In this document: positions 2,075 through 61,259 of the stretch, in pieces | Layout: each line of letters begins with the position of its first letter | Position numbering within the stretch: the stretch's first letter is position 1 | NCBI GenBank assembly: GCA_030524345.1 | Contig: JAUNGP010000008.1 | Span: 1,610 to 65,609 of the forward strand | DNA length: 64,000 nucleotides | Direction: 5' to 3' | Source: Clostridia bacterium | Lineage (GTDB): Bacteria; Bacillota; Clostridia; TANB77; CAG-465 | The notes under the pieces: model-generated | Database searches by the model: none | What the model was told of the DNA's origin: nothing | What the model saw: the letters and a program-made list of their open reading frames with translations, nothing else | Program-made: the position numbers and the translations under genes

Positions 2075-3319
2075 ATGAATAAGAATGAAAAAATATATAA
2101 AGTATTTAGAGTACTTGGATATGACTATTTTCTATATAATGTAATCATATTCTTATTTATTACTGAGGTAAAAGGAATCTCTGTATCAGAATATTTGTAT
2201 ATGAATTCTTTTTATTGTGCAGCAATTGCTATATTAGAGATACCCATGAATTATATTGTTGAAAGAATTGGAATAAAGAAAAGTATAGTGCTTGGAGGAT
2301 TTTTCTGGATAGTGCATTGCTTAATGATAATGTTATTTAAAGATTTTAAATTATTTTTACTTGCTAATTTATTTTGTGCTCTTGGAACTTCTTTTAAAGG
2401 GCTTTCTGAGACACAAATGCTTTACTCGAGTTTAAAATCTAGTAATAGAACAAGAGAATTTGCAAGGTTGGAAGGGAAATGTGTATCAAAATATTATTAT
2501 ATAGAAGGAATATGTAGTATTTTTGTTGGTTCATTATTTACTTTAAATAGTTACTTACCTATCAGTATTACGCTTATTATACTAATGATTGCCTTTTTAG
2601 TTTCTTTGAGATTTGATGAAGTAAAAGCATATAATCAGGATGGAGAAATTGGCGTTAGAGAATATGTAAAAGATTTTAAATTAGTAATTGGAAGCAGAAG
2701 AATCGTTTCTATACTATTATATGCTTTTTGTATGTCTGGAATTATAGGAGTTATGGCAACATTACAAAAAAGTTTAATTGTTGAATTAGATGTTAATGCT
2801 ACAGCTTATTCAATCATATTTGCAATTCTTACTCTTTGCATTGGTTTGGGATCAAGATTACAGAATAGAATTGAGAAATATACCAAAAGAAAAAATCTTA
2901 CATTTATTGGACTTACATATACTTTATTGTTTATGTTATTAGGTTCATTTAATATGCTCAATTTTAGCACTATATTTTTAATTGTAGTTACAGTAATTAT
3001 ATTATTTTTTCAAAACATATTACAAGGCGTATATCGAATTTCTGTAAAAAAATATATGAATAATTTTACTACATCAAGAGTGAGAGGAAAAATACTTGCT
3101 ATTTTTTACATTTTTGAAAATATTGGACAAACTCTATTTTTGTTTTTAGCGGGATATATCATAGATAGCAAAGGAACGAGTCTAACTACATTAATCATAG
3201 GAGGAATCTCTTTTATTATTATATTACTAGTATTAGGGTTTATGAAAAATAGGCTTGGCCTTGATCCAGAGCAATATGATAAAAAAGATATATTTTATAC
3301 TGATATAAGTAAGAAATAA
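2075..3319 (+). CDS. MFS-type transporter (multipass membrane protein)
   Basis: About 12 hydrophobic segments in a 6+6 layout with a central loop. ATG at 2075 follows AGGGGA. The ORF track start at 2051 is GTG without an SD. Confidence 0.55.
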   Translation: MNKNEKIYKVFRVLGYDYFLYNVIIFLFITEVKGISVSEYLYMNSFYCAAIAILEIPMNYIVERIGIKKSIVLGGFFWIVHCLMIMLFKDFKLFLLANLFCALGTSFKGLSETQMLYSSLKSSNRTREFARLEGKCVSKYYYIEGICSIFVGSLFTLNSYLPISITLIILMIAFLVSLRFDEVKAYNQDGEIGVREYVKDFKLVIGSRRIVSILLYAFCMSGIIGVMATLQKSLIVELDVNATAYSIIFAILTLCIGLGSRLQNRIEKYTKRKNLTFIGLTYTLLFMLLGSFNMLNFSTIFLIVVTVIILFFQNILQGVYRISVKKYMNNFTTSRVRGKILAIFYIFENIGQTLFLFLAGYIIDSKGTSLTTLIIGGISFIIILLVLGFMKNRLGLDPEQYDKKDIFYTDISKK

Positions 3320-3492: not shown

Positions 3493-4554
3493 CTATTTTT
3501 TTAAATAAATTGTTTGTGATGGATAAGCAAGATCGATTTTATTTTTTTCAAGTATTTGTATGATTTTATAATTGATATTTTCCTTTAAACTGATATAGTC
3601 GGAATAACTTTTTAGTGGTGTTTTACAAGAAATGTAGATGTTATAACCTGAATCTTCCATTTCAGTAAACTTAACAGTAATTGTTTCATTTACGATATCA
3701 TCATAGCTTTCTAATAATGTTTGAACATCATTTGTAAAATTGCAAAGTTGTTTTAGGTTAGCACGATACTCAAGGATTAAATTCATTTTGATACGTCTTA
3801 AGTTCATTTTTGTCCAATTGATTACCGGACTATTTGCTATATCTGAATTTGGTATTGTAACAACAGAATCATCCCATGTTCTAATTCTTGTACTTCTAAA
3901 AGTGATTTCTTCTACAATTCCTTCATATTTTTCTGTTTGGATCCATTCTCCGATTGCAAAGGGTTTATCAAAAAATATTACCATTCCACCAAATAAATTT
4001 TTTGCTGTATCTTGAGCTGCTAGTGCTATTGTAACACCACTAAGTCCAAGACCTGCAATAAGTCCATTGATATCATATCCTAATTCACTGATTGATATAA
4101 CAATTGCAATACAGAAGATTAATACTCTGGCAATATTACATACTAGGTTAATAATTTTAATATCATGTGAAACTCTGGTCTTTTTTAAAAATGCTTTTAT
4201 AAATAATGAATTTGGTTTTAATGCATTACTTACAGAACAAGCAATTAAAATAATAATAGAGACTCTAAATAATCTATTTATAATTAAAAATAGACTATCT
4301 GGAACTCCCAAAAATAGGATTGCTAAATAGATTCCTAAAATCAAAAAGAAAATTTTTAAAGGCTTATATAAGGCACTGTTTTTTATTTTTTCATTATTTG
4401 TTCCTTTTATTTTAAATATTTTAATCATAATATAGGAAAGCAATGGTCTAATGATCAAGAAAAAAAGTACGATTCCAATAGCAATTAGAATTCTAGAAAA
4501 AGTACTTAATTCAAGGTTTGATATCTTAGTTATCATTTCATTTATTTTATCCAT
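3493..4554 (-). CDS. small-conductance mechanosensitive channel (MscS family)
   Basis: N-terminal TM helices followed by GGMVIFFDKPFAIGEWIQ...GIVEEITFRSTRIRTWDDSVVTIPNSDI, typical of the MscS beta-domain. GAGGAGG SD. Confidence 0.8.
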   Translation of the reverse strand: MDKINEMITKISNLELSTFSRILIAIGIVLFFLIIRPLLSYIMIKIFKIKGTNNEKIKNSALYKPLKIFFLILGIYLAILFLGVPDSLFLIINRLFRVSIIILIACSVSNALKPNSLFIKAFLKKTRVSHDIKIINLVCNIARVLIFCIAIVISISELGYDINGLIAGLGLSGVTIALAAQDTAKNLFGGMVIFFDKPFAIGEWIQTEKYEGIVEEITFRSTRIRTWDDSVVTIPNSDIANSPVINWTKMNLRRIKMNLILEYRANLKQLCNFTNDVQTLLESYDDIVNETITVKFTEMEDSGYNIYISCKTPLKSYSDYISLKENINYKIIQILEKNKIDLAYPSQTIYLKK

Positions 4555-6687: not shown

Positions 6688-7746
6688 ATGCCAATATTAA
6701 ATAAAAATAATAGGAAACAAGTAGAAAAATATAATAAATTTGTAAGAAACTATACAGGTGCTAGCCTTATGCAAGATCTTGCGTGGGGAAAAGTAAAATC
6801 AAATTGGATTCAAGAAGCTGTTTATTTAGAAGAAAAAGGTAAAATAACTGCTGCTATGATGATTCTGATAGAAAAAGTAAAAAAATTGAATACTACCATC
6901 ATGTATGCTCCACGAGGTCCAGTATGTGATGTATATGATATAGAAAAGGTAAAAAAATTGATTGCAGAAGTAGAACCTTTAGCAAAGAAATACAAATCTT
7001 TTGTATTAAAATTTGATCCACAAATCATATATGATGAAAAACTTGAAAACTTGTATAAAGAGGCGGGATTTAAAACATCAGGTAAAAATCCAAATCCCGA
7101 CACTGTGATTCAACCATCTCATAATATGGTTTTAAAAATAGAAAATAAAACTGCAGACGAACTTTTAAAAGGATTTAGTGAAAAAACTAGATATAATGTA
7201 AGACTATCAAAAAGAAAAGGCGTTATAGTAAGATTTTCTAGAGATGAAGAAGATTTGAAAACTTTTTATGAAATATATAAGATTACAACAATCAGAGATA
7301 AAATTGGCTGTAGACCGTATGAATATTTTAAAAGAATGCTTGATGCTTATGATGAAAATCAGCTAAGAATATATATTGCTGAACACGAAGGAGATAAACT
7401 ATCAGCTGCAATTGCTACTAATTTTGGTGGAGAGTTATTTTATTTATATGGTGCAAGTTCCAATGAAAAAAGGAATCTTATGCCAAACTATGCTATGCAA
7501 TGGGCTATGATTGAGTGGGGACTGGAAACAAAGTGTAAAACATACAATTTTGGTGGACTTTTAAGTTTGAATTTAGATAATGGATTGTACAAATTTAAAG
7601 TTGGATTCTGTAGGGAGGAAGGAATTGAAGAATATATAGGGGAAATTAATAAAGTTTATAAAAAAGGAATGTATTTTATGTATTCAAAAGGACTGCCTTT
7701 AATGCGAAGAACAAATAGGAAATTAAGAGGATTAAAGACTCATTAA
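6688..7746 (+). CDS. FemAB/FemX-family aminoacyl-tRNA-dependent peptidoglycan interpeptide transferase
   Basis: 352 aa. Motifs YAPRGP, FxxKTRYNVRLSxRKG and LFYLYGASSNEKRNLMPNYAMQWAMIEWG match my recollection of the FemAB family. There is no coiled-coil insert, which is FemX-like. Confidence 0.75.
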   Translation: MPILNKNNRKQVEKYNKFVRNYTGASLMQDLAWGKVKSNWIQEAVYLEEKGKITAAMMILIEKVKKLNTTIMYAPRGPVCDVYDIEKVKKLIAEVEPLAKKYKSFVLKFDPQIIYDEKLENLYKEAGFKTSGKNPNPDTVIQPSHNMVLKIENKTADELLKGFSEKTRYNVRLSKRKGVIVRFSRDEEDLKTFYEIYKITTIRDKIGCRPYEYFKRMLDAYDENQLRIYIAEHEGDKLSAAIATNFGGELFYLYGASSNEKRNLMPNYAMQWAMIEWGLETKCKTYNFGGLLSLNLDNGLYKFKVGFCREEGIEEYIGEINKVYKKGMYFMYSKGLPLMRRTNRKLRGLKTH

Positions 7747-9051: not shown

Positions 9052-9564
9052 ATGACTATATCAATTCCAGATTATGAATTTTGTGAACCAACTGTTTTAG
9101 AAACTCAAAATATTCCCAATTCTGAGCATTTAGAAGCTATTGAAAAATGGATTGAACATTACAAAATGTTAGAAGCCGAAAAAATGCAAAGAGTAAGGCG
9201 GTTATATAATTGTGCTGGAAAAAATAAAAAATATCGGTATAAGAAAAAGCTTTGTCAAAATGTTGTAAAAAGAGCAATTAAGAAAAAGTCTTTAAAATAT
9301 AATGATAAGGGAATGTTAAAAATCAGACTTTGGCCAAGATTAGATGAAAATGGAAACAAATTACATGATAGCCGCGGTGTTGTAGTAAAGGTTGAACGAT
9401 ATGATATATTAGCTTTCGTTAGAATTTTGGTTGCAGCGAAAAGTTTGGGCAATGATATTTTTTATGAGTTCTTGTCAATATATGATGTAAAACAAATAAT
9501 GAATAATATTACGGAGGATTACTTTGGTGATTTAAGATTGTTTTTATCTAGAGATACAATATAA
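9052..9564 (+). CDS. hypothetical protein (basic central region)
   Basis: AGGAGGG SD. 170-aa ORF followed by a terminator. No family recognised. Confidence 0.55.
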   Translation: MTISIPDYEFCEPTVLETQNIPNSEHLEAIEKWIEHYKMLEAEKMQRVRRLYNCAGKNKKYRYKKKLCQNVVKRAIKKKSLKYNDKGMLKIRLWPRLDENGNKLHDSRGVVVKVERYDILAFVRILVAAKSLGNDIFYEFLSIYDVKQIMNNITEDYFGDLRLFLSRDTI

Positions 9565-9572
9565 AACTTTAG

Positions 9573-9605
9573 GCATATGATTATGAATTTAATCATATGC
9601 TTTTT
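9573..9605 (+). terminator. intrinsic terminator
   Basis: GCATATGATT (9573-9582) pairs with AATCATATGC (9591-9600), followed by TTTTT. Confidence 0.7.
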
Positions 9606-9651
9606 GAATATATCATATTGAAAAGTAAATAATATATAATGGTGATCAGTT

Positions 9652-10101
9652 ATGAGAGAAGAATTGGAATTTTTGGAGTATTTGTATAATATTGTAAAAC
9701 TAGAAAAAGATGCATTATCAAGAATGATAAAAATGCGAGATAAGAATGATTTATTAAATAATATATTAAAAGAACAAATTGGTATATATAAAAGATTTGG
9801 AATTTCTATTGAAAAAATGATAGAAAATAGAAAAAAGAAAGTAGAGGATTTAAGCATATTTGCTAAGATGGCATCTCATGTTGGCGCAAAATTTGTAACC
9901 TCAAAAGATAACGATATCGATAGAATTTTTAATATTTTAATGCAAAGATACCAGGTTTGTATAGAAGAAGTAAATTCTAAAGTACAAGAAAATAAAATTA
10001 CTAGTAAAACGATTTTAAATCTTACAAATAGATTTATAGAATTTCAAAATAGGAATATTAATACCCTGAATAAAGCTTATAAATTATTTGACAAATCATG
10101 A
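9652..10101 (+). CDS. hypothetical protein (helical, coiled-coil-like)
   Basis: 149-aa ORF with GGTGA SD. No motif recognised. Its stop codon lies inside the spacer of the promoter of the downstream RNA gene. Confidence 0.5.
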   Translation: MREELEFLEYLYNIVKLEKDALSRMIKMRDKNDLLNNILKEQIGIYKRFGISIEKMIENRKKKVEDLSIFAKMASHVGAKFVTSKDNDIDRIFNILMQRYQVCIEEVNSKVQENKITSKTILNLTNRFIEFQNRNINTLNKAYKLFDKS

Positions 10102-10116
10102 ATATTATGATATAAT
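10088..10116 (+). promoter_or_regulatory. perfect consensus sigma-A promoter driving the tRNA-like RNA
   Basis: TTGACA (10088-10093), exactly 17 nt, TATAAT (10111-10116). The predicted transcription start is near 10123. Confidence 0.7.
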
Positions 10117-10183
10117 ACATGAAGATTGATGATTTGAGTTAAAAAGTGAAGAATTTTGATTTTGTTGATAGTTATGTTTGTTT

Positions 10184-10257
10184 GCTCTATTAAGTCTCAG
10201 TGGGAGAGCTTATAAATGAAAATTTATAGTGCATCAGTTCGATTCTGATATAGAGCT
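10184..10257 (+). ncRNA. tRNA-shaped RNA (tRNA-Phe-like; non-canonical D arm and 18-nt anticodon arm); either a pseudo-tRNA or a tRNA mimic
   Basis: Acceptor stem GCTCTAT/ATAGAGC. T8 A9 present. D loop AGTGGGA with GAGC as the 3' strand; the 5' strand is GTCTC (one bulge) plus an extra A. The anticodon arm is TATAA-ATGAAAAT-TTATA, which can also fold as 7 bp plus a GAAA loop. Variable region GTGC. T arm ATCAG-TTCGATT-CTGAT. Discriminator T, no CCA encoded. Confidence 0.6.
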
Positions 10258-10260
10258 TAG

Positions 10261-10304
10261 TACAATAACTGGCCTTGTCGAGCGGCCATCGTGAAGTTAT
10301 TGTA
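10261..10304 (+). ncRNA. structured 3' extension of the tRNA-like transcript (10-bp helix)
   Basis: TACAATAACT (10261-10270) pairs perfectly with AGTTATTGTA (10295-10304). The interior contains GGCC-N9-GGCC. Confidence 0.45.
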
Positions 10305-10330
10305 TTTCTCCAAAATTTAAAATGTGTTGA

Positions 10331-10366
10331 GAAAAAGCGACCTATTATGGTTGCTTTTTCGCTTTT
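10331..10366 (+). terminator. intrinsic terminator of the tRNA-like RNA unit
   Basis: GAAAAAGCGACC (10331-10342), loop TATTAT, GGTTGCTTTTTC (10349-10360, one G-U pair), then GCTTTT. Confidence 0.75.
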
Positions 10367-10409
10367 ATGATTTATTTTTAATAAATTTAATACATTTTTT
10401 TCTAAAGTC

Positions 10410-10438
10410 TTGATTTTTGACATATTATATAGTATAAT
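10410..10438 (+). promoter_or_regulatory. sigma-A type promoter of the rimP operon
   Basis: TTGATT (10410-10415), 17 nt, TATAAT (10433-10438). Confidence 0.55.
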
Positions 10439-10456
10439 ATTATTGCAATATTGAAG

Positions 10457-10486
10457 AGTGAGAGGGTGAACAAAAGTCCTCTCACT
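10457..10486 (+). promoter_or_regulatory. 5' leader hairpin of rimP mRNA (candidate rimP-leader element)
   Basis: AGTGAGAGG (10457-10465) pairs with CCTCTCACT (10478-10486), 12-nt loop. Located about +12 to +42 of the predicted transcript. No U-tract follows. Confidence 0.4.
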
Positions 10487-10511
10487 TATGTTTAAGTAGT
10501 AGGTGATTTTT

Positions 10512-11039
10512 TTGAAATGGAAGATAGAAGAAAAAATTGAGAACGAAATAGGTTCAAGAATAGAAGAATTAGGTTTTGAAATTGAATATGTTGAATATGT
10601 TAAAGAAGGGGACAGAAATATACTAAGAATTGTATTAGATAAATTGGATGGCAGTGTAACAATTGATGATTGTGAACTTGTTAGTAGGGATGTTGAAGAT
10701 AGAATCGACAAATTATTAGATAGTGAATATGTTCTTGAAGTATCATCTCCTGGTGTTGAAAGACAGTTAAAAAATATCAAATTGTATAAAAAGTATATTA
10801 ATCATGAAATATACATTAAATTATTTAAAAAAGATGAGGATGGAAAAGAATTTACTGGCATTTTAACAGATGTTGATGAAGATAGAGAATATATTACTTT
10901 AAAATTAGAAAATAAAAATAAAATAATAGATTTAAAGAATGTGACTACAGCACACACAGTATATGATTTTGATGCTGTTTTAAAACAAAATTCTGATAAT
11001 GTTAACTTAAACAAGTTAAATAAATTTAATAAAAAGTAG
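10512..11039 (+). CDS. rimP: ribosome maturation factor RimP
   Basis: Position upstream of nusA plus typical RimP segments (LRIVLDK...TIDDCELVSR...LEVSSPGVERQLK). TTG 10512 lies 6 nt after AGGTGA; GTG 10503 is the alternative start. Confidence 0.85.
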   Translation: MKWKIEEKIENEIGSRIEELGFEIEYVEYVKEGDRNILRIVLDKLDGSVTIDDCELVSRDVEDRIDKLLDSEYVLEVSSPGVERQLKNIKLYKKYINHEIYIKLFKKDEDGKEFTGILTDVDEDREYITLKLENKNKIIDLKNVTTAHTVYDFDAVLKQNSDNVNLNKLNKFNKK

Positions 11040-59541: not shown

Positions 59542-59618
<77 letters not shown>

Positions 59619-61230: not shown

Positions 61231-61259
61231 TTGACATAACTAAAAATGTATGTTATAAT
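61231..61259 (+). promoter_or_regulatory. perfect consensus sigma-A promoter
   Basis: TTGACA (61231-61236), 17 nt, TATAAT (61254-61259). Confidence 0.7.

Follow-up and report, generated by a model that had tools for sequence, protein, structure and literature searches.

What kind of RNA gene stands in front of rimP in this genome, and is it still a transfer RNA (tRNA)? The question is raised by a stretch of 64,000 nucleotides (nt) from a Clostridia bacterium (contig JAUNGP010000008.1 of assembly GCA_030524345.1), which was analysed as a whole and is called here the window. At 10184..10257 of its + strand lies a tRNA-like element of 74 nt. The unit which contains it, with a promoter and a terminator of its own, sits on the + strand between the stop of a gene for a hypothetical protein of 149 amino acids (9652-10101) and rimP. 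A first-pass annotation, made from the sequence, had described a tRNA-Phe-like gene with single-nucleotide insertions and had proposed four identities for it: a pseudo-tRNA, a tRNA with an 8-nt anticodon loop, a tRNA mimic, or a donor of amino acids outside the ribosome. The features which it listed (the promoter, the cloverleaf, a helix of 10 base pairs (bp), the terminator, the CCA encoded by a tRNA-Arg and a FemX-type gene) are all found where it had placed them, and of the four candidates the best fit is the tRNA mimic, in the sense of a tRNA-like RNA which does not decode. We give a probability of about one half to the following reading: the unit is a gene, transcribed on its own, whose RNA derives from a tRNA, has no anticodon, is matured like a precursor tRNA devoid of CCA and acts outside translation.

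The element folds as a cloverleaf, with its arms in the order acceptor, D, hairpin, variable, T. The acceptor stem of 7 bp (10184-10190 GCTCTAT with 10250-10256 ATAGAGC) is followed by TA (U8-A9, 10191-10192), by the D region AGTCTCAGTGGGAGAGC (10193-10209), which forms an irregular D arm with GG, and by a single T at 10210. The position of the anticodon arm is occupied by the 18 nt TATAAATGAAAATTTATA (10211-10228), which make 7 bp plus GAAA. Then come the variable region GTGC (10229-10232), the T arm ATCAG-TTCGATT-CTGAT (10233-10249) and the discriminator T (U in the RNA) at 10257. No CCA is encoded after it, unlike in the tRNA-Arg(TCT) at 59542. When the element is folded alone, its structure of minimum free energy is the cloverleaf, at -20.7 kcal/mol with z = -2.8; in this fold the arm in the anticodon position is a 7-bp stem (9 pairs in the fold) under the GAAA cap. 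The G+C content of the window is 28.7%.

We compared the window with its relatives, which are contigs of RimP homologues from a large protein collection. The gene order is constant in them (cysS, FemAB, DUF6512, flavin reductase, two hypothetical genes, rimP, nusA, ylxR, infB), and the unit exists in six distinct versions, every one in the same slot upstream of rimP. Four versions form type A. That of the window is identical in L009 (RimP identity 98%); that of L010 (83%) has 7 bp plus UAAAU in place of 7 bp plus GAAA; that of L268-L270 (78%) has 8 bp plus GAAA; and that of L015-L018 (71%) has 10-11 bp plus a loop of 4-6 nt (UUAUUG on the 10-bp stem). The D stem carries one extra nucleotide in the window and in L010 (AGTCTC...GAGC, with a 4-bp alternative stem), and is regular in L268 and L015 (GCTC / GAGC, with GG). 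The two versions of type B, L272 (RimP 66%) and L273 (RimP 63%), have no D stem: in place of the D arm and the anticodon arm there is a stub of about 25 nt. Their acceptor stems are GGGATGT / GCATCTC and GGGATAT / ATATCTC, their T arms TGTGG-TTCGAGT-CCACA and ATTGG-TTCAAGT-CTAAT, and their discriminator is A; U8-A9 is present. The acceptor stem of 7 bp and the 5-bp T stem with its UUCRAnU loop were thus found in the window, in type A, where 100% of the cells pair in both helices, and in type B.

How much of this conservation could be mere lack of time to diverge? At the four-fold degenerate sites of nusA the genomes are 46-63% identical, against 42% expected from composition. Hence, neutral sites are near saturation. 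The 5' part of the element (acceptor and D) is 72-96% identical between lineages and its 3' part (variable region, T arm and acceptor) 76-97%. Shuffled sequences give 47-49 ± 5-6%, and the leader and the trailer, at 45-59%, are at this shuffled level. Compared with L015, the T arm of the window is identical at 17/17 positions; in the same comparison the arm in the anticodon position has only the identity of shuffled sequences and is a hairpin nonetheless. Over the four type-A versions 97.8% of the cells pair, against 33-55% in slid controls. Four pairs of type A are altered on both sides, namely acceptor pairs 3:70 and 5:68 (U-A to C-G) and two pairs of the stem in the anticodon position, and both-sided changes in type B affect acceptor pair 6:67 and T-stem pairs 49:65 and 50:64. 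The alignment of relatives upstream of rimP, which had been put forward as a check for covariation, has therefore brought out changes of both partners in acceptor, T (type B) and anticodon-position stems.

Judging by these alignments, purifying selection acts on the top half and the elbow of a tRNA: the acceptor stem, U8-A9, the D arm with GG, the 5-bp T stem and the UUCRAnU loop. A freely running pseudogene is unlikely for this reason. The arm in the anticodon position has followed another course. A conserved 7-nt anticodon loop on a 5-bp stem was not found: the stems measure 7, 7, 8 and 10-11 bp and bear the loops GAAA, UAAAU, GAAA and UUAUUG, and type B lacks this arm. What is kept there, as the versions indicate, is a helix of any length from 7 to 11 bp, or nothing, and no anticodon. 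Since this arm is kept merely as a variable helix without an anticodon, a decoding role is excluded, the version with an 8-nt loop included. The resemblance to tRNA-Phe with inserted nucleotides must be given up as well: what had been read as GAA(A) in an anticodon loop is a tetraloop, in whose place the relatives have UAAAU on 7 bp, GAAA on 8 bp or 4-6 nt on 10-11 bp, and two of them have no anticodon arm at all.

Is the element a gene in its own right? A sigma-70 promoter lies at 10088..10116 (+ strand), with TTGACA at 10088-10093, a spacer of 17 nt and TATAAT at 10111-10116, a 12/12 match; the spacer ends in TGA, which provides an extended -10 TG at 10108-10109. Perfect TTGACA-N17-TATAAT sites number four in the 64-kb window, against 0.13 expected from shuffles, and this promoter is exact in 6/6 versions of the unit. 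Transcription probably starts near 10123-10124. The 5' leader (10124..10183, + strand), of about 60 nt, is AT-rich and presumably an RNase P leader; its identity to L268 and L015 is 50-59%, equal to that of shuffled controls, and its length among the versions runs from 41 to 107 nt. The base at its position -1 is a U, as it is in 5/6 versions, and the base after the discriminator is a U in every version. At the other end, an intrinsic terminator occupies 10331..10366 (+ strand) with an A-tract, a GCGACC / GGTTGC stem and a U-tract, 12 pairs being formed within 10331-10360. It is the sole terminator-like site in the 1.5 kb scanned (9500-11000), where 0.1 is expected. Its identity in L010 and L268 is 86-94%, and L015, L272 and L273 have terminators in the same place. 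The predicted promoter and terminator bracket a primary transcript of about 240 nt. The unit contains no plausible open reading frame (ORF): its small ORFs have neither conservation nor ribosome-binding sites.

Between the element and the terminator stands a trailer hairpin (10260..10305, + strand). Its lower helix, 10260-10270 with 10295-10305, has 11 bp, that is, the perfect 10 bp of 10261-10270 / 10295-10304 plus a G-U pair 10260/10305, and encloses GGCC-N9-GGCC; the upper GGCC/GGCC helix is formed by 10271-10274 and 10284-10287, with an internal loop on the 3' side. L015 has a hairpin of the same shape and of another sequence (CATATAGTAGT / ACTACCTATATG, with inner GGCC / GGCT), with compensatory changes. 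Some hairpin follows the tRNA-like element in 6/6 versions, but in L268 there is just a short, unrelated one of 6 bp, TGCAAC-ATT-GTTGCA, so that the trailer hairpin is not a constant part of the family. Seen as part of a conserved design, the second helix is borne out in L015 but not in L268. By contrast, the description of a self-contained, tRNA-shaped gene, which would be neither a chance fold nor a freely decaying relic, is borne out by the fact that promoter, acceptor and T helices and terminator are kept in six versions while the flanks are randomised.

We searched for this unit among described RNAs. ARAGORN does not call the element; its sole call in the window is the tRNA-Arg(TCT) at 59542, and it finds no tmRNA there. 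The Rfam tRNA model (RF00005) has a gathering score of 29, and the element stays under it with 20.1 bits. These scans, which the first-pass annotation had asked for, leave the element without a tRNA call and without a family above threshold. At gathering thresholds, Rfam 15 finds nothing in the 64 kb but the tRNA-Arg(TCT). A permissive Rfam scan of this region of the window yields only sub-threshold matches of chance level over the terminator (DapZ, 23.7 bits; RefA9, 22.8 bits), and the same scan of eight relatives and of the type-B loci yields no family accounting for the unit. The suggestion of a module like that of Y RNAs finds no Rfam family match either. RF01770, the rimP leader of gammaproteobacteria (gathering score 47 bits), finds nothing in the window up to E = 10. 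In L272, the type-B terminator at 2270-2338 (AAAGUACCGAUUUUUAUCGGUACUUUUU) resembles RF01770 with 23.2 bits and E = 2.8; the match covers the terminator only and may be a chance likeness between terminators. On the basis of these scans, the unit belongs to no described RNA family. The version of L015 reaches 45.5 bits on the Rfam tRNA model, at the price of a 12-nt insertion in the anticodon loop, and for ARAGORN the copies of L268 and L015 are tRNA-??? with anticodons of 4 nt (gaaa for L268). This is a warning for annotation: tRNA finders miss the element, or label its relatives as tRNA-Phe or as an undetermined tRNA with a 4-nt anticodon.

A scan for RimP in a collection of species genomes returned distant relatives only (34-47% identity), none with the element; this shows that the clade of the window is not among the species genomes of that collection. 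In the window and 38 related loci, a covariance model of type A (R1) hit nothing beyond the copies on which it had been trained; there is no second copy in the 64 kb, and type B is too diverged for the model to catch. A 21-mer specific to type A has no match in viral contigs, and hence there is no sign of a phage origin. The T-arm pattern CATCAGTTCRAWTCTGATAT was searched in metagenome and viral contigs: among the matches listed there are ordinary tRNAs and no new member, 127/228 of them being tRNA-Gly(UCC) of environmental contigs. The 15 listed stretches without a normal tRNA call are coding sequence, fragments of tRNAs (several at a contig end) or otherwise unlike the element.

What, then, would such an RNA do? 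In Firmicutes, tRNAs mature through RNase P, RNase Z and the addition of CCA, and our proposal follows this pattern. RNase P would cut at 10183/10184, after the leader, RNase Z would cut after the discriminator U10257, with U as the next base, and the CCA-adding enzyme would finish the 3' end, leaving a stable L-shaped RNA, about 74-77 nt long and incapable of reading a codon. We infer that it acts in trans as a tRNA mimic, as a ligand, decoy or carrier for a protein which recognises the minihelix of acceptor and T arms together with the elbow. We do not think that it is a small RNA pairing with messenger RNAs. By analogy with metY in E. coli, its most likely origin would be a real tRNA gene heading the rimP-nusA-infB operon, which would have lost decoding and gained another use.

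Several points weigh against this reading. It is derived throughout from the sequences of metagenome assemblies, and with six distinct versions in total the covariation statistics are thin. The D arm of the window has its extra nucleotide, and its folding may be poorer than in L268 and L015. Acceptor and discriminator differ between the types, G1-C72, C2-G71 and U73 in type A against G2-U71 and A73 in type B, which argues against one fixed synthetase or sequence-specific partner. The unit is also not always there. L274-L277, whose RimP protein is identical to that of L273, have an intergenic region of 149 bp without the whole unit; L271, with the same RimP as L268, has another upstream gene, and the breakpoint lies just 5' of the rimP promoter; and the lineage with RimP at 79-80% (L011, L012, L264-L267) has in this slot an ORF of 125 amino acids with a long leader. 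Since contigs with an identical RimP are without the unit and the 79-80% lineage has other genes in its place, any function which it has is dispensable; as its distribution indicates, the unit is accessory. In L019 and L020, the slot holds another promoter-terminator unit and two ORFs, respectively. A remnant of the element was sought in L011 and L264, and just a weak AGTTC...TATAGAG likeness was found, which is not convincing in AT-rich DNA.

The part of the slot nearest to rimP behaves otherwise. Outside the unit, there is a rimP promoter, TTGATT-17-TATAAT (10410-10438, + strand), then a leader hairpin (10457-10486, + strand; GTGAGAGGG...CCTCTCAC, followed by UUAUGUUU), and the RimP start, which homologues of 175 amino acids place at the TTG at 10512 (+ strand). 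Among the relatives, whether or not they carry the tRNA-like unit, the stretch 10410-10511 hardly varies. It has the look of an attenuator or leader for rimP-nusA-infB, perhaps a NusA-sensitive one; Rfam has no family matching 10410-10511. In L008, a distant Lachnospiraceae metagenome-assembled genome, a genuine tRNA-Glu(CTC) stands at 3155-3227, about 280 nt upstream of rimP, which suggests that an operon-head tRNA gene recurs outside gammaproteobacteria.

Other observations concern the neighbourhood and the sequences which fill the slot. In the window, 6688-7746 encodes a FemX-like single-domain transferase directly after cysS, an arrangement conserved across the clade. Two clade-specific hypothetical proteins of 170 and 149 amino acids are encoded at 9052-9564 and 9652-10101, and their position is kept in all relatives. 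Pfam and NCBIfam give no match for these two, nor for the proteins which replace the unit, the 125-amino-acid ORF included. The leader of this ORF, of about 300 nt (L011:3150-3443, also in L012 and L264), has its own promoter and several hairpins and no Rfam match; it could be a cis-regulatory RNA. The ORF itself (L011:3443-3820) seems to have a paralogue in the window: another perfect TTGACA-17-TATAAT at 61231-61259 drives a small ORF from about 61311, which begins MNNYSYENKNKKMIGTSLAFCVRDIIAGKYDIGDVEAIIAGTHF and looks like such a paralogue. In L019 (RimP 62%), the roughly 300-nt unit at 3551-3860 has promoter and terminator; neither a T loop nor an obvious ORF can be recognised in it, and it may be another unannotated RNA. 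L020 contains at 2676-2709 an intergenic (CA)n microsatellite of about 17 repeats, upstream of the genes which fill the slot.

The evidence can be read in other ways. The main rival, unlikely in our eyes, is a role in cis, as in an operon head of the metY kind: read-through of the terminator, possibly sensitive to NusA, would add growth-rate-linked transcription to rimP-nusA-infB, and the tRNA shape would be only the signal by which RNase P or RNase Z detaches the upstream RNA and sets the 5' end of the mRNA. Position and order of the parts are indeed those of E. coli metY, where a tRNA, an RNase III hairpin, t1 and t2, P2 and rimP follow one another (PMC6511841), the tRNA-Glu(CTC) of L008 stands in a comparable place, and the type-B terminator is weakly like RF01770, although this match is far under threshold. 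However, rimP has its own near-consensus promoter and its conserved leader hairpin, unchanged in strains without the unit, the terminator is strong, and a mere cleavage signal does not obviously need a conserved D arm with GG. If the tRNA shape were instead a processing handle for a small RNA, in the manner of mascRNA for MALAT1, the function would reside in the hairpin-terminator fragment 10258-10366 or in the leader, with an end set by RNase Z or RNase P. This would account for the hairpin which follows the element in all versions, and for its shape being kept and its sequence replaced between the window and L015; it is made very doubtful by the leader and trailer, which are at the identity of shuffled sequences, share no single-stranded motif and contain no stretch resembling a conserved seed, and by L268, whose trailer is the 6-bp hairpin only.

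A dedicated aminoacyl carrier outside the ribosome is, we think, quite improbable. It would be charged without an anticodon, for instance by glycyl-tRNA synthetase (GlyRS) through G1-C72, C2-G71 and U73, would serve as donor to the FemX-like transferase 2.4 kb upstream for the cross-bridges of peptidoglycan, and would be kept out of translation; if true, it would be a tRNA stripped of its decoding half and never able to enter translation. C2-G71 and U73 are acceptor determinants of bacterial tRNA-Gly and are present in 4/4 type-A versions, and the same T arm is found mostly in tRNA-Gly(UCC) among the matches listed. But in type B one finds G2-U71 and A73, alanyl-tRNA synthetase would have no G3-U70 to read, and the T and D loops are canonical, unlike those of the staphylococcal tRNA-Gly which evade EF-Tu. 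The FemAB-family gene is in conserved synteny and scores 276 bits on the NCBIfam model of FemX Lys-N6-alanyltransferase, where the cut-off is 500; four genes separate it from the RNA, which has its own promoter. The link with it, drawn in the first-pass annotation, is not supported by L011, L019 and L020, all of which retain FemAB in its place without the RNA. A decaying, functionless tRNA pseudogene, transcribed because its promoter is not yet eroded, would explain why some strains are without the unit and some lineages have other sequences instead, why the D arm of the window is irregular and why type B lacks D and anticodon arms. We hold it for hardly credible: promoter hexamers are perfect in all six versions, the T arm is identical and the helices show compensatory changes, despite near-saturated synonymous sites and randomised flanks. 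Finally, the arm of the window, taken alone, admits a drawing with 5 bp in the stem and AUGAAAAU as an 8-nt loop, and the 4-nt anticodon gaaa given by ARAGORN to the L268 copy agrees with a decoding tRNA derived from tRNA-Phe, whose expanded loop would read quadruplets or shift the frame. Yet tRNA-Phe carries A73, and type A has U73. The loop varies even in close relatives (GAAA, UAAAU, and UUAUUG on a 10-bp stem), and the extra stem pairs are kept; active tRNAs known have anticodon stems of 5-6 bp and loops of 7 nt (PMC7609411). Such a quadruplet or frameshift tRNA is in practice refuted by the comparative data.

If the RNA is, as we favour, a tRNA mimic acting outside translation, it would be a new variant, at the level of a family, of bacterial tRNA-like non-coding RNAs. 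Of a tRNA, selection has retained just the parts on which RNase P and RNase Z act, together with those recognised by the CCA-adding enzyme, by modification enzymes and by proteins that read the acceptor, and it has discarded the anticodon. The unit would then be a compact and strongly promoted object for asking what the top half of a tRNA does alone, and possibly an evolutionary intermediate, an operon-head tRNA gene recruited to a new role.

To our knowledge, bacterial tRNA-like RNAs outside translation are few and poorly understood: tRNAOther, the modules of Y RNAs and the cell-wall tRNAs of staphylococci. The unit has no defining feature of tmRNA, of a Y RNA or of the Rfam rimP leader, and its likeness to each known system is partial. 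Like the unit, the non-coding RNA YrlA includes a module which mimics a tRNA and has T and D arms. The ends of YrlA leave a Ro-binding stem on the anticodon side, its acceptor side being closed, whereas the RNA described here ends at the acceptor stem, has no Rfam match and has no Ro/Rsr gene nearby. The non-proteinogenic tRNA-Gly of staphylococci, which are Fem substrates, likewise constitute an extra tRNA-shaped gene in the presence of a Fem-type transferase, and type A shares with them G1-C72, C2-G71 and U73. They have a normal UCC anticodon loop and deviate in the T and D loops, both of which are canonical in the element; the element has no anticodon and shows no co-occurrence with FemAB.

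The tRNA-like domain of tmRNA is also restricted to the upper half of a tRNA, with a reduced D region and no anticodon (PMC3985003), and type B (L272, L273) resembles it especially. That domain, however, is made of the 5' and 3' ends of an RNA of about 360 nt with pseudoknots, a tag ORF and G3-U70; here it is contiguous, pair 3:70 is U-A or C-G, there is no tag ORF and ARAGORN finds no tmRNA. The tRNAOther of the B. cereus group is a tRNA-like element outside translation with a Trp-type (CCA) anticodon, tied to the T-box control of trpS1 (PMC3399842). It and the element are both dispensable tRNA-like genes of Firmicutes, outside translation, within a longer transcript which has its own promoter and terminator (PMC3399842). 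Compared by description, they differ in that tRNAOther has transcripts which extend about 500 nt on each side, flanks a genomic island and keeps an anticodon, and that the element reported here is anticodon-less, belongs to a 240-nt unit and adjoins rimP. The closest parallel in layout is metY (tRNA-fMet2) of E. coli, which is followed by RNase III sites, the terminators t1 and t2, the promoter P2 and rimP, and which is non-essential and varies between strains (PMC6511841). This is a likeness of layout between different phyla; at the level of sequence, RF01770 gives no match in the window and 23 bits in L272. metY is a real initiator tRNA with an anticodon, where the element has a hairpin. With this difference, position and order are the same in both organisms, namely a strong promoter, a tRNA-shaped gene, a hairpin, terminator(s), a second promoter and rimP-nusA-infB-rbfA, and in both of them the tRNA-shaped gene is non-essential and variable between strains.

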